Notes: generated by a model from the letters alone, not told the origin. A stretch of DNA of 52,325 bases from an uncultured bacterium (GCA_965603295.1 CBFDCL010000002.1:1-52325), one strand, 5' to 3'. Positions 25,070 to 52,325 are shown, counted from the stretch's first letter. A program made the numbers and translations.

Positions 25070-25260
25070 AATGGAGTGCAGAAGGTCAGAGTTTGAAAGT
25101 TTGAAAGTTTGGAAGTTTGAGGGTTTGAAGTTTGAGGTTTGAAGTTTGAAGTTGCGAGACGCCATCTGTTATTCGGGATGGGTGACGGGGGACTGGTTTT
25201 CCCCGATCACTGATCACGAATCACTAATCACTGTTTTTTTGAAATCTGGAATTTGAAATT
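25070..25260. repeat. Intergenic 7/8-bp repeat mosaic R1
   Basis: AGTTTGAA/AGTTTGAG octamers, TTTGAAG/TTTGAGG heptamers, a spacer, GATCACT/AATCACT heptamers, a T-run and GAAATTT-type heptamers. Confidence 0.9.
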
Positions 25261-25297
25261 CAGTGTCAGCATCGTTGGATCAGAAAGAAAGGGTATT

Positions 25298-25930
25298 ATG
25301 AGTGCATTGAGGGTTGAACATCTTATGGTTGGTCCTCTCCAGGCCAACTGCTTCATCGTAGGAGATGAAGTTTCGGGAGAAGCGGTGGTCATTGATCCCG
25401 GCGGGGACGGTGACGCTGTCCTTTCCGTCATAGGGAAAAGGCCTTGGAAAGTGGTTGCGGTGCTCAATACCCACGCCCATTTCGACCACACGGGCGCCAA
25501 CGGCACCCTGACCAGGAAAACCGGGGCTCCCCTGATGATCCCCAGGGATGACGCTCCCGACCTTCCGTTGGCACACCTGGCAGCCCGGTTGTACGGGCTG
25601 GAGGAGAAGGAATCCCCGCCTGCCGACCGGATCCTCGAGGAAGGGGATGTGATCCGGGTCGGGGATGAGGAGATCCATGTTCTTTCAACCCCGGGACATA
25701 CTGTTGGGGGGGGAGCTTTTGTCACATCCATAGGCGTATTCTCCGGGGACTCTTTGTTCGCGGGATCCATTGGCAGGTCGGATCTCCCGGGGGGCGATTA
25801 TGATACACTTATCAATTCCATAAAGGAAAAGATCCTTTCCCTGTCAGATGACACACCGGTCTATCCGGGCCATGGACCTGCAACCACGGTTGGAAGGGAA
25901 CGCGCCACGAACCTGTTCCTTCAAGACTAG
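25298..25930 (+). CDS. MBL-fold metallo-hydrolase (glyoxalase II / YcbL-like)
   Basis: GPLQANC, IDPG, THAHFDH, TPGHT, SGDSLF, PGHG. Confidence 0.93.
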   Translation: MSALRVEHLMVGPLQANCFIVGDEVSGEAVVIDPGGDGDAVLSVIGKRPWKVVAVLNTHAHFDHTGANGTLTRKTGAPLMIPRDDAPDLPLAHLAARLYGLEEKESPPADRILEEGDVIRVGDEEIHVLSTPGHTVGGGAFVTSIGVFSGDSLFAGSIGRSDLPGGDYDTLINSIKEKILSLSDDTPVYPGHGPATTVGRERATNLFLQD

Positions 25931-25970
25931 GATCTTGTTTTTCGGTTGGATGATCCGGAGGGAAAAAGGG

Positions 25971-27191
25971 ATGAATGAGGGAAAAGATCAGAGGCTTCAG
26001 GGGAGGAAGGTCCTGCTCGGCGTCACGGGGGGGATCGGTGCCTACAAGGCCGCTGAAATGGTTCGGGCCTTTGTGAAAGAGGGCGCCGATGTGTCCGTGG
26101 TCATGACCCAAAATGCCACCCGTTTTATCTCACCGCTTACAATGGGGACGTTGAGTAAAAACCTGGTGGCGCTTGACATGTTCTCCCTTACGGAAGAGAC
26201 ATCCATCGGGCACATTGAACTGGCTCAGGCTGCCGATGTTTTCGTGGTTGCGCCCGCCACCGCGAACTATATCGGAAAGGCAGCACGGGGTATTGCCGAC
26301 GATCTGTTAACCACCGTTTCCCTCGCCATCCGATGCCCGATGGTAATCGCCCCCGCCATGAACTCCAGGATGTGGTCCCATCCCGCGGTTTCGGAAAACA
26401 TCGAGACTCTGAGGTCGAGGGGGACGACGGTCGTTCTTCCCGAGGAAGGGGAACTGGCCTGCGGTGAGGAGGGACCGGGTCGGTTGGCCGGTCTTGAGAG
26501 GATCGTGGAGGCTGTTGTCGAAAGTTTGTCCGGAGGCGACCTGGGGGGGATCCGGATCCTGGTAACCGCTGGCCCGACGAGAGAACCGGTTGACCCGGTG
26601 CGTTTCCTCGGTAACCGATCCTCCGGAAAAATGGGGTACGCGCTGGCAGAAGCCGCGGCCCGCAGAGGAGGGGATGTGACCCTGATCTCTGGTCCGGTTG
26701 AACTGGCAGCCCCCCCCATGGTGTCCAGGATCAGCATCACAACAGGGCAGGAGATGTTCAGCGAGGTGAAAGAGGCCCTTGCCCGCTCGGACTGGCTCAT
26801 TATGGCTGCTGCAGTGGCCGATTTCCGACCCGTGAGGACAAACAAGGAAAAAATCAAGAAGGAAGGACAAGATTCCCTGATTCTCGAACTGTCGAGGAAC
26901 CCCGATATCCTGGGGGAGGTTTCCCCTTTAAAGGCGGGTCGGCTTTTCGTCGGTTTCGCCGCGGAGACCGAAAATGTTATTGCCCAGGCGAAAAAGAAGA
27001 TCCGGAAAAAGGGCCTGGACCTCATCGTCGCCAACGATGTTTCCAGGGAAGATACGGGCTTTCATTCTGATGACAACATCGGCACCATTATCGATACCAA
27101 CGGCAACATGGAGCACCTGCCGAAGATGTCCAAAAGGGTGATGGCGGAAAAGATCCTGGACAGCGCCCTTAAACTCTGGCTGAAGAAGTGA
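25971..27191 (+). CDS. coaBC: Phosphopantothenoylcysteine decarboxylase/ligase
   Basis: GVTGGIGAYK, APAMNSRMW, LACGEEGPGRL, TAGPTREPVDPVRFLGNRSSGKMG, AAVADF, GFAAET. Confidence 0.97.
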   Translation: MNEGKDQRLQGRKVLLGVTGGIGAYKAAEMVRAFVKEGADVSVVMTQNATRFISPLTMGTLSKNLVALDMFSLTEETSIGHIELAQAADVFVVAPATANYIGKAARGIADDLLTTVSLAIRCPMVIAPAMNSRMWSHPAVSENIETLRSRGTTVVLPEEGELACGEEGPGRLAGLERIVEAVVESLSGGDLGGIRILVTAGPTREPVDPVRFLGNRSSGKMGYALAEAAARRGGDVTLISGPVELAAPPMVSRISITTGQEMFSEVKEALARSDWLIMAAAVADFRPVRTNKEKIKKEGQDSLILELSRNPDILGEVSPLKAGRLFVGFAAETENVIAQAKKKIRKKGLDLIVANDVSREDTGFHSDDNIGTIIDTNGNMEHLPKMSKRVMAEKILDSALKLWLKK

Positions 27192-27221
27192 GCCGGGGAA
27201 GAGAAGGATGACGCGAAGCAT

Positions 27222-27899
27222 ATGTCCCACTTGAAGAGGATCTACCTGGAATCAATCGGTCTCGAATATCAGCCGTTCCCCGGAATCGGGAGGCCGGGAG
27301 AGCCCTGCAGCCAATCTTTGGGAAAGGGGGCCGCCCTGGAAGCGCTGAGGGGCGAGATCGGTGATTGCCGGAGGTGTCCCCTTTCCACGGGAAGAAAAAA
27401 CCTTGTTTTCGGAAACGGAAACCCCGATGCGGAACTTGTGTTCGTGGGAGAGGCACCGGGAAGAGAGGAGGACATTCAGGGAGAGGCGTTCGTGGGGAGC
27501 GCCGGCCAGCTTCTCACGAGGATCATTGGCGCCATGGGCTTGTCGAGGGAACAGGTATACATCTGCAATGTGATCAAATGCCGCCCGCCGGGGAACAGGG
27601 ATCCGCTCCCCTCGGAGATTGAAAGATGCGAACCTTTCCTGAAGAGGCAGCTCGATATACTCGATCCGCGGATCATCTGCGCTCTGGGCAGTTTCGCCGC
27701 CAGAACGCTTCTGAGAACCGAGGAGAGGATTTCCCGGCTGCGGGGCAGGGTCCTGGAGTATAACGGGATCCCCCTTGTCCCCACTTACCACCCCTCGTAT
27801 CTTCTGAGGAACCCGCATGCCAAGCGTGATGTGTGGATGGATATCCAGAAGATAATGGGAATTCTCGGTCTGGCCGTTGCCGGGGAAGACGGCGGCTGA
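27222..27899 (+). CDS. Family-4 uracil-DNA glycosylase ([4Fe-4S])
   Basis: CRRCPL, VGEAPG, YICNVIKCRPPGNRDP, C at ERCEP, PTYHPSYLLR. Confidence 0.94.
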   Translation: MSHLKRIYLESIGLEYQPFPGIGRPGEPCSQSLGKGAALEALRGEIGDCRRCPLSTGRKNLVFGNGNPDAELVFVGEAPGREEDIQGEAFVGSAGQLLTRIIGAMGLSREQVYICNVIKCRPPGNRDPLPSEIERCEPFLKRQLDILDPRIICALGSFAARTLLRTEERISRLRGRVLEYNGIPLVPTYHPSYLLRNPHAKRDVWMDIQKIMGILGLAVAGEDGG

Positions 27900-52058: not shown

Positions 52059-52073
52059 GGACCGCGCCCCTTC

Positions 52074-52100
52074 TTGACAAACCCTTCCTCCGATGATAAT
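52074..52100 (+). promoter_or_regulatory. Candidate tRNA promoter TTGACA...GATAAT
   Basis: Perfect -35; best -10 has a short 15-nt spacer. Confidence 0.45.
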
Positions 52101-52116
52101 CACATAATCCGTTTGT

Positions 52117-52193
52117 TGCGGGGTGGAGCAGTCCGGTAGCTCGTTGGGCTCATAACCCAAAGGTCCCAGGTTCAAATCCTGGCCCCGCTACCA
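52117..52193 (+). tRNA. Initiator tRNA-Met (CAT)
   Basis: 77 nt with encoded CCA; anticodon stem TTGGG-CTCATAA-CCCAA with three G-C pairs; mismatched 1:72 position; T-loop TTCAAAT. Confidence 0.97.
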
Positions 52194-52239
52194 AAAAATA
52201 AAGGCCGCGGCTTATGCCGCGGTTTTATTTTTTGGTAGC
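52194..52239. terminator. Bidirectional-type terminator hairpin after the tRNA
   Basis: GCCGCGGC-TTAT-GCCGCGGT stem flanked by A-rich and T-rich tails. Confidence 0.8.
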
Positions 52240-52263
52240 AAGTCCAATGTTCAACATGAAAGA

Positions 52264-52325
52264 TAGTTCAGAGTTCAGAGTGCGGAGTGCAGAGGAAACT
52301 CGCGTTGAATGTTAAACGTTTCACG
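52264..52325. repeat. Intergenic repeat mosaic R9, truncated by the window end
   Basis: AGTTCAG x2, AGTGCGG/AGTGCAG (reverse complement of the R6 block), TTGAATG/TTAAACG. Confidence 0.75.

Follow-up and report, generated by a model that had tools for sequence, protein, structure and literature searches.

The window analysed here is a stretch of 52,325 nt (GCA_965603295.1, CBFDCL010000002.1:1-52325) that represents contig C2 of a metagenome-assembled genome, G000, from an uncultured sediment bacterium (2.30 Mb, 180 contigs, 56% GC, 98.8% complete), and its subject is a family of tandem arrays with units of 7 or 8 nt that occupy the spacers between genes in its second half. From 25 to 52 kb the genes are all housekeeping genes on the plus strand, except for a minus-strand response-regulator gene at 34764-35348. 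They comprise dtd, an MBL-fold gene, coaBC, udg, tamB, bamA, PTPS, an amidohydrolase and an M42 peptidase gene, followed by rsmD, coaD, pta, aspC, pdxA, a binding-protein gene and larA and, lastly, a double malic enzyme gene, glcD and glcF-like genes and a tRNA-Met, the single match of an Rfam search of the window.

An initial annotation of this region had proposed that nine loci are built from one small set of blocks in both orientations, and this was confirmed with Tandem Repeats Finder (TRF) together with direct reading: 7/8-nt tandem arrays are present at all nine, with 3-8 copies per array. Their extents are 25090-25233, 36523-36672, 37441-37550, 38690-38809, 40943-41043, 44769-44833, 46167-46334 (by eye from 46104), 51933-52058 and 52265-52294. 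A weak further locus suspected near 34644 did not hold up, as TRF found no tandem array in this spacer, which adjoins the minus-strand response-regulator gene. The heptamers are TTGAGAA, TTTGAAG/TTTGAGG, GTGATTG, ACGTTCA/GTTTAAC, TTGGACC/CCTGGAT, AGTTCAG and GAAATTT, in both orientations, and the octamer unit is AGTTTGAG. The recurring units are abbreviated as E (TTGAGAA), F' (AGTTTGAR octamers), F (GTTTGAR), H (GTGATTN) and A (ACGTTNA type), and the parts of the loci are as follows.

25090-25153, plus strand: gap 1 (dtd to the MBL-fold gene), direct array of AGTTTGAA octamers (F') and GTTTGAR heptamers (F), with the terminal junction GTTGCGAGAC.
25180-25233, plus strand: gap 1, worn H-type hairpin with a degenerate H arm GGGTGACGGGGGACTGG, the loop TTTTCCCC and an H' array of 4 copies of GATCACT.
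25241-25260, plus strand: gap 1, solo arm GAAATCTGGAATTTGAAATT, an exact copy of both arms of a PF05635 gene cassette at G000:C123:1967-2482.
36523-36559, plus strand: gap 2 (PTPS to amidohydrolase), E array of 5.3 copies of ATTGAGA, beginning 7 nt past the stop codon.
36575-36594, plus strand: gap 2, H array GTGATTC GTGATTG GTGAAC, without a partner arm.
36604-36672, plus strand: gap 2, F array (5.3 copies of TTTGAAG) and then A array (3.6 copies of ACGTTCA, with a self-complementary AACGTT core), immediately 5' of the Shine-Dalgarno sequence.
37441-37462, plus strand: gap 3 (amidohydrolase to M42), 2.8 copies of the F' octamer AGTTTGAG, immediately past the stop codon.
37462-37517, plus strand: gap 3, empty H-type hairpin, GTGATTG GTGATTC GTGATT / loop TTTTTCC / CAATCAC CAGTTTC CAATCCC TAATCAC.
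37526-37550, plus strand: gap 3, TCTTGGR array of 3.6 copies (TRF).
38690-38809, plus strand: gap 4 (M42 to RsmD), spacer-spanning hairpin of the inverted arrays AAAGRCC (4.6 copies) and TTGGACC (4.3 copies).
40943-41051, plus strand: gap 5 (PTA to AspC), direct mosaic of E (3 copies of TTGAGAA), F' octamers and F heptamers, then the junction GTTGCGGGAC.
41073-41142, plus strand: gap 5, second copy of a 115-nt composite, with a degenerate H arm, the loop CTTTTTCC, an H' array, a T run and GAAATTTGAAAC (worn solo arm).
44769-44833, minus strand: gap 6 (binding protein to LarA), F and AGTTCAG arrays (on the plus strand, 3.6 copies of CTTCAAA and 4 of CTCTGAA).
46104-46195, plus strand: gap 7, GTCCAAA-type units, which encode the last LarA codons (stop codon 46127-46129), then an AAATCCA/AGGTCCA array.
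46208-46283, no strand assigned: gap 7, H-type hairpin, GTGATTT GTGCCTA GTGACTG GTAATTG / 21-nt loop / CTAATCA CTAATCA CGAATCA CTGATCA.
46290-46334, minus strand: gap 7, F'-F-GTTGCGG composite with an exact junction match at 46290-46310.
51933-52058, minus strand: gap 8 (glcF-like gene to tRNA-Met), with the minus-strand order E, F, ATCCAGG, A (4 copies of GTTAAAC), which is the usual order.
52265-52325, plus strand: gap 9 (past the tRNA-Met terminator), AGTTCAG/AGTGCAG array, then A-type GTTGAAT GTTAAAC GTTTCAC, running off the end of the window.

The PTA stop codon (40951-40953) is supplied by the second E unit of gap 5, and in gap 6 the arrays reach right up to the start codon of LarA, a gene without a Shine-Dalgarno sequence. 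Examples of inverted array pairs in the window are 37462-37517, 38690-38809 and 46208-46283. In gap 1, the F array and the worn H hairpin together form one 115-nt composite copy (25131-25245) that is 84% identical to 41021-41135.

The same kind of sequence is spread over the whole genome. A scan of G000 returned 1402 period-7 and 373 period-8 arrays, counted as TRF rows, against 31 and 48 in the locally shuffled genome, a large excess; in terms of bases, 13.3% of the intergenic and 0.34% of the coding sequence lies in arrays, and 649 of the 1402 heptamer arrays belong to just ten unit classes, the commonest ones. The description of the tracts as filling most long gaps was roughly right, since 48-61% of the spacers of at least 100 nt hold one or more TRF-detectable arrays. 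These counts are lower bounds because the mosaics break short-read assembly; a tract is found within 60 nt of 62 of the 360 contig ends (17%), against a tract share of 2.1% of all bases. In the window, arrays are almost absent from the gene-dense half, which includes a chemotaxis-type cluster (5849-15833) with a CheA-like kinase (8292-10343), a DUF4388 protein (5849-7903) and a 683-aa protein made up entirely of HEAT repeats (12918-14969).

Comparison was extended to the family of G000, represented by G001, the sole same-genus genome compared (a metagenome-assembled genome from the Zodletone spring with the record label 'Proteobacteria bacterium'), and fifteen further genomes from nine genera, to twelve species-level relatives that were obtained by a metagenome scan (76-81% M42 identity), and to seven independent assemblies of the same region (L133-L137, L221 and L222), 98.7-99.9% identical to the window. 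Samples of eleven relatives also show a period-7 excess, with 0.6-8.5 arrays per 10 kb against about 0.13 after shuffling, and their heptamer units mostly differ from those of G000. The modules in common are GTGATTN (H), ACTCTGG, ACGCGGAG, a 30-nt GTGCACTAGTGCACCNGTGCACATGTGCAC element and AACGTTN arrays placed just 5' of Shine-Dalgarno sequences. The 30-nt element, GTGCACTAGTGCACC(N)GTGCAC(AT/CT)GTGCAC, is a series of four GTGCAC palindromes, always 2 nt apart, and is conserved between species at different loci (G000:C165:640-670 and L138:4932-4962); in C165 it adjoins a partial PF05635 gene.

The order of neighbouring arrays is not random. The preferred order of modules is E, F', F, then GTTGCGG, then one alternative module with its own linker, which can be GTTGGAC, GTGATTN, GTGCACNN, GGATCCAA or ACGTTNA. 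Particular successions are over-represented: AAATTTC is succeeded by AAGATCC (GGATCTT and then GAAATTT on the opposite strand) in 13 cases where 0.7 would be expected, and TTGAGAA by GTTTGAA in 11 where the expectation is 1.7. The 21-nt junction at the end of F, GTTTGARGTTTGAAGTTGCGG, was counted 117 times in G000 and 0 times in G001, and no other genome of the family has more than 6 copies. The species-level relatives examined lack it, its presence being limited to same-species loci, and it had zero matches in the viral contigs searched with it. Longer segments recur as well: 109 spacer pairs share at least 120 nt, the best being 85-95% identical over 130-220 nt, and the two 115-nt copies in the window are of the same kind as these recurring composites. 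A trio from contigs C29, C44 and C29 combines unique linkers of more than 90% identity with arrays of unequal copy number, and each of its members has the F' end directly against a stop codon; neither a common boundary nor a target-site duplication was visible where the C29/C44 copies end. The 20-nt arm of the C123 cassette has 12 copies genome-wide with at most one mismatch, against 0 for a control pattern. Thus, similarity between loci exceeds that expected from independent microsatellite growth, and the earlier proposal that simple slippage does not account for the tracts is borne out by junctions, unique linkers and mirrored unit variants common to several loci. A non-repeat hairpin insert (GGTGAAGCACGTTGGACCCGCCTTCGC...GGCGTGGCAGGC) is found in three copies within GTTGGAC arrays (C25:22162, C22:18463 and C45:879) and looks like an element nested within the array.

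A second regularity is the pairing of arrays in inverted orientation. Among adjacent same-unit arrays of G000, 85 pairs are inverted and 29 direct, against about 55 and 46 with shuffled partners, and in the relatives the corresponding numbers are 32 and 3. The inverted excess is limited to distances below 250 nt (inverted to direct, 56:30 and 46:15) and vanishes across genes (25:18; 68:62 at 800-1800 nt; 108:99 at 1800-4000 nt). The H unit forms 44 convergent H/H' pairs; in half of them the loop does not exceed 20 nt and mostly measures 7-8 nt. The H array of gap 2 has no partner arm in the window, and the orthologous PTPS-amidohydrolase junction in relative L139 has a complete H/H' hairpin. 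When complementary arrays within spacers were compared with random tract pairs, by a strict ungapped score or by duplex energy, little or no enrichment was obtained; this null is high because the vocabulary is small. Inverted versus direct proved to be the informative contrast.

The junction between the M42 gene and rsmD always measures 106-192 nt in the twelve relatives, and in all 11 readable cases the spacer contains a hairpin with inverted-array arms that spans it from stop to start. In the window, the segment 38690-38809 folds with a minimum free energy of -39.8 kcal/mol (z = -2.73; none of 200 shuffles folds as well). The units that build the arms change with the species, being AAAGACC/TTGGACC, GTCCAAT/TTGGACG, ATCCAAA/TTGGATT, AGTTCAG/CTGAACT, AATTCAA/TTTTGAA, AATTTCA or GTTCCA. 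Because the hairpin is kept in eleven species while the repeat unit differs, the arms co-vary; in accord with this, the duplex energy of arms from the same species averages -35.6 kcal/mol against -25.3 kcal/mol for cross-species combinations (permutation p = 5e-5). At this junction, the M42 stop codon lies at the 5' foot of the hairpin and the rsmD start codon at its 3' foot, and rsmD has no Shine-Dalgarno sequence in 11 of 11 species (38683-38817 in the window; L138-L147 and L175), whereas the neighbouring genes have clear ones. To judge from this arrangement, the junction may represent hairpin-bridged translational coupling.

The hairpins also have a coding version. PF05635 (S23p) genes are present in 5 copies in G000 and 0-14 in relatives and were found in one of 14 control genomes; the C34 copy scores 118 bits against a cut-off of 33.8 bits. 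All four full-length PF05635 genes of G000 lie inside the loop of inverted arrays drawn from the same vocabulary, in agreement with the initial annotation, which had anticipated four-helix-bundle cargo between tracts. The arms consist of H units (23 nt, 100% complementary, 429-451 nt apart), ATTTCAA units (31 nt, 100% complementary, 454 nt apart), CCAGGAG units (26 nt, 100% complementary, 484 nt apart) or GACACGGA octamers (40 nt, 78% complementary, 660 nt apart), and they are true inverted copies of each other, since variant units are mirrored between them. PF05635 also lies between inverted arrays in four of the seven relatives examined, once with H arms. The TTTTTCC inner junction is common to the window H hairpins and the H' arm of the C34 PF05635 cassette. 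The S23p with H arms in G000 is 58% identical to the S23p of G011, which also has H arms, and 41% and 33% identical to G000 paralogues with other arms. No window locus carries a PF05635 open reading frame, the full cassettes being elsewhere in the genome; both the cassettes and all window loci are located between protein-coding or tRNA genes and not in helix 25 or 45 of the 23S rRNA. A gene for RNase III is present in G000.

Between species, the tracts come and go while the genes remain. The gene order hyp-PTPS-amidohydrolase-M42-RsmD-CoaD-PTA-AspC-PdxA is kept in 12 of 12 relatives, bar one ordinary extra gene in some; this gene, between the amidohydrolase and M42, was considered as a cassette and rejected, being of ordinary Sir2 type by sequence motif. 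With gene order unchanged, both empty and filled states of orthologous junctions are found across species. Depending on the species, PTPS to amidohydrolase is either empty (36 nt, a compact Shine-Dalgarno spacer) or array-filled (124-474 nt), coaD to pta either a compact Shine-Dalgarno spacer of 20-31 nt or filled at 324-396 nt, and aspC to pdxA either a compact Shine-Dalgarno spacer of 57-71 nt or filled at 288 nt. Polymorphic sites therefore exist, as junctions differ between species in being filled or empty.

At the strain level, apart from two single-base indels, intergenic indels are confined to the E/F' arrays after pta, that is to gap 5, where L133 has one extra TTGAGGA unit (+7 nt) and L134 a deletion of 27 nt, so that polymorphism in unit number exists among strains; at the remaining window loci covered by the strain assemblies, unit number is unchanged. 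Within genes, the periplasmic binding-protein gene of L133 is shorter by 21 nt in frame, over four small gaps (43882-43903). Strains that are otherwise more than 99.5% identical also show clustered substitutions, 34 in 165 nt of pta (40419-40584, versus L136) and 12 in 160 nt of the M42 gene (38109-38268, versus L134), mostly at third codon positions; these clusters look like imported recombination tracts.

We put the probability at about 0.6 that the heptamer/octamer loci form a genome-wide non-autonomous repeat system, made up of arms, relics and copied composites of a hairpin element whose complete form carries S23p. A recurrent unit would be the inverted array pair, giving a hairpin of 25-40 bp, the only form with a coding version; in the complete form, a PF05635 gene, encoding an Avd-like four-helix bundle, would sit in the loop of about 430-660 nt. 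Gene-free copies would then take three forms: empty hairpins (37462-37517, 38690-38809 and 46208-46283), solo or worn arms (25241-25260, 25180-25233 and 41073-41142), and the direct composite of E, F', F, GTTGCGG and alternative module, greatly amplified in this species. The tracts gain and lose units by slippage, the arms of their hairpins covary, composites are copied between spacers, and junctions turn over between species. As to mobility and function, we infer that copying would occur via recombination or gene conversion anchored in shared arrays, or via a cassette-type insertion involving S23p. Stems in transcripts would probably be cut or bridged, like those of rRNA intervening sequences, and the element would be tolerated inside operons for this reason. 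The direct E/F mosaics would be unstructured, C-poor 3' trailers.

Several observations weigh against this reading. Only about 10% of adjacent array pairs in G000 are inverted, and shuffled sequences fold as well as the dominant E/F mosaics (z = +1.04; -0.45 for gap 2). We infer the tie between mosaics and cassettes, since no PF05635 cassette has E/F arms. PF05635 copy number does correlate with period-7 density (rho 0.72, p 0.008, n = 12), a figure that draws on 20-80-kb samples of related genomes, and PF05635 is absent from G006, yet some arrays are found there. Among strains of 99.2-99.9% identity, unit number varies at only one of seven window loci. Insertion boundaries, target-site duplications and a mobilising enzyme were looked for and none was found. 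A role of the arrays as sense-strand RNA is not supported: G.U pairs on the sense strand are not in excess (G.U versus A.C asymmetry, 114 versus 160), and a scan with a terminator consensus was at chance, giving 22 sites where 20.2 were expected, with no array hairpin among them. Intrinsic termination was also rejected as a general role by the count of T runs, which follow 3 of 86 tract hairpins in sense and 5 of 86 in antisense.

A wider version of the hairpin-element reading is put forward as a tentative idea, with the odds clearly against it. In it, short tandemly repeated repetitive (STRR) sequences, long simple sequence repeats (SSRs) and the array pairs of Xanthomonas would be arms or debris of one class of hairpin cassettes, whose autonomous form would encode only an Avd-like S23p pentamer that recognises its own arms. 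Such recognition is suggested because the S23p subfamily tracks the arm unit across genera (58% versus 33-41%), and S23p would help the cassette to be copied or maintained, with neither a reverse transcriptase nor a transposase involved. In mRNA, the stem would be excised by RNase III as in the rRNA intervening sequence, or would merely bridge the spacer; a spacer hairpin would bring the stop codon beside a start codon that lacks a Shine-Dalgarno sequence, as at M42-rsmD in 11 species, and downstream translation would be coupled across 100-190 nt.

Among the rival explanations, the one that survives best, though we judge it unlikely, is a cis-acting punctuation code, in which a nucleic-acid-binding protein (S1, Csp, CsrA-like or the S23p pentamer) would use the arrays, with their 7-nt period, as platforms to bind to; the arrays would be selected at gene ends and starts, with a vocabulary that co-evolves with its reader. 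Rules of position and orientation do speak for it. Indeed, of the arrays in the first third of co-directional spacers, 228 have a C-poor sense strand and 118 a C-rich one, and near convergent gene ends the numbers are 154 and 81; the junction element follows the direction of the genes (36:19) and prefers convergent over divergent spacers (29:12). The M42-RsmD hairpin, kept in 11 species before a gene that has no Shine-Dalgarno sequence while its neighbours have one, would also fit, and regulatory roles have been proposed for the TAACTGA and Nostoc heptamers (PMC4679880; bioRxiv 10.1101/2022.06.06.494920). However, the orientation rules, real but weak, amount to only about 2:1, one and the same junction can be array-filled in one species and a Shine-Dalgarno spacer of 20-36 nt in another, congeners use different vocabularies, and no candidate reader protein was identified.

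Lower in the ranking, and improbable, is a system of the repetitive extragenic palindrome (REP) and REPIN type, in which a REP-associated tyrosine transposase (RAYT, Y1 HUH) would mobilise hairpins in trans and the mosaics would be clusters resembling BIMEs. H-type hairpins with loops of 7-8 nt do resemble REPs, the elements are biased to gene 3' ends, the repeat sequence is species-specific, and G000 has one Y1_Tnp gene, with similar single-copy genes in 10 of 16 family genomes. Nevertheless, this sole match (C92:528-941) is a fragment of 137 aa whose surroundings are free of arrays for about 500 nt, Y1 presence does not track array density (G003 has one gene and few arrays, G014 none), and the arms are tandem arrays from about 20 unit families rather than one conserved palindrome. 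Of the enzymes for which the initial annotation had suggested looking, RAYT is represented by this fragment only and a reverse transcriptase is absent. Indeed, a search of G000 with RVT_1 gave no match; a reverse-transcriptase or telomerase-like origin was rejected on this ground, as was a diversity-generating retroelement with an Avd partner. PF13366 (PD-(D/E)XK), considered as cargo, is absent from G000. In a comparison with miniature inverted-repeat transposable elements, inverted arms are present and a transposase-bearing relative was not found.

It is very improbable that the tracts are independent microsatellites grown by polymerase slippage in place, with a 7-nt preference and units shared through mutational bias. 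On the one hand, heptamers are the commonest long SSR class in many prokaryotes, for which a polymerase-footprint explanation has been proposed (Mrazek 2007, as far as the account in PMC4679880 goes), polymorphism in unit number is present, and units form the graded series TTGAGAA, TTTGAGAG, TTTGAAAG, TTTGAAG. On the other hand, the sharing of linkers between loci contradicts this reading: identical non-repeat junctions and linkers stand at dozens of loci, arms are 100% complementary with variant units mirrored in order, composites common to several loci reach 85-95% identity, and one gene class is bracketed. General integron-like gene capture, with inverted arrays as recombination sites that move arbitrary cargo, is dismissed with equal firmness: PF05635 genes are indeed bracketed by inverted arrays and many ordinary genes have same-unit arrays on both sides, but inverted pairs merely equal direct ones across genes (68:62 and 108:99), the enclosed genes are ordinary and not small, synteny is conserved across the twelve relatives, and no credible open reading frame lies in the larger H loops at C142 and C17; no search aimed at an integrase was made. 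Of the two origins first envisaged for the tracts, a dispersed non-autonomous element family thus stands, whereas a scar of the capture of flanking housekeeping genes is contradicted by the synteny kept in twelve relatives. Nor do the tracts tend to bracket small ordinary genes, as had been supposed, the doubly flanked genes having a median of 295 aa against 279 aa.

Downstream of gap 7, two further features of the window were noted. The gene at 46545-49133 encodes an 862-aa protein with two tandem malic-enzyme units (two matches each for malic and Malic_M). Ahead of it, a non-repetitive leader (46390-46544) contains a GC-rich hairpin with a T run (46504-46527), which is terminator-like; the leader gave no match in Rfam and might act as an attenuator.

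Intergenic heptamer repeats have been on record from cyanobacteria for decades, and we know of no accepted origin or function for them; S23p (PF05635), in turn, is very widespread and of unknown function outside diversity-generating retroelements. G000 joins heptamer arrays, convergent array pairs and S23p-bearing intervening sequences in one testable system. If this link is true, S23p would gain a role and a large share of non-coding DNA in some bacteria would be explained. The covarying operon-junction hairpin, the filled and empty versions of junctions and the S23p paralogues that track arm sequence provide material for experiments. On the practical side, heptamer mosaics break short-read assemblies, as 17% of the G000 contig ends lie in tract.

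Among known systems, the STRR sequences of heterocystous cyanobacteria, reportedly described by Mazel in 1990, share with the G000 tracts tandem heptamers in several families per genome, mostly intergenic and with a patchy phylogenetic distribution, but the G000 host appears not to be a cyanobacterium and its commonest units appear to differ. The same likenesses hold for long SSRs with units of 5-11 nt (Mrazek 2007, to the extent covered by PMC4679880). Beyond both, the modules of G000 follow a fixed order with conserved junctions, its arrays pair in inverted orientation with covarying arms, and one class of genes is bracketed by them. TAACTGA direct repeats of marine Beggiatoaceae (MacGregor 2015, PMC4679880) and heptanucleotide elements of Geobacter metallireducens (PMC2700814) are similar in forming dozens to hundreds of intergenic sets of 2-6 heptamers, some of which overlap gene ends or abut starts that lack a Shine-Dalgarno sequence. 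Unlike G000, where there are many units, arrays that mostly begin at stop codons, and hairpin and cassette forms, these are direct repeats of a single unit placed mostly just 5' of start codons. Single-unit heptamer sets also occur in Nostoc (bioRxiv 10.1101/2022.06.06.494920). The BIME/REP/REPIN elements of enterobacteria and pseudomonads resemble the tracts as extragenic mosaics of few motifs with set orders in both orientations, biased to gene 3' ends, hairpin-forming and species-specific in sequence, whereas the G000 motifs are tandem arrays instead of a single palindrome and have no intact RAYT partner.

Together with STRR and long SSRs, two further systems come closest to the G000 tracts. 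In Xanthomonas campestris and X. citri, convergent GGGAATC heptamer arrays form 70-75 pairs per genome that are able to fold into stem-loops (Rehm et al. 2015, PMC4692102); as in G000, these are intergenic heptamer arrays of typically about 4 units in same-unit convergent pairs. They differ in belonging to a single G-rich family (GGGNATC), studied as G-quadruplex, while G3 tracts are lacking in the window units and in all genome-wide unit classes except AAAGGGG (12 arrays), and neither a link to S23p cassettes nor ordered mosaics of several families nor orthologous covariation is reported in the paper. Intervening sequences of the 23S rRNA with an S23p open reading frame occur in Coxiella burnetii, Leptospira, Brucella and Xanthomonas; that of Coxiella has 428 nt, a 28-bp terminal stem, the S23p open reading frame and excision by RNase III, and its stem region contains tandem heptamers whose number varies between strains (PMC4990558). 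PF05635 itself resembles Avd of diversity-generating retroelements (PMC10053308). In both kinds of element, about 25-40 bp of stem enclose a loop of about 430-660 nt with a PF05635 open reading frame, and neither contains a transposase. In contrast, the G000 elements lie between protein-coding genes, number hundreds of copies, most of them gene-free, take their arms from about 20 unit families and include a large class of direct mosaics that are not hairpins; excision by RNase III is known for the rRNA elements, while those of G000, where the RNase III gene is present, are known from sequence. Our literature search found no paper linking intergenic heptamer arrays to S23p cassettes outside rRNA. 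Collectively, the tracts are rated as a variant of heptamer SSRs and of hairpin elements of the intervening-sequence type, both of which are known kinds.

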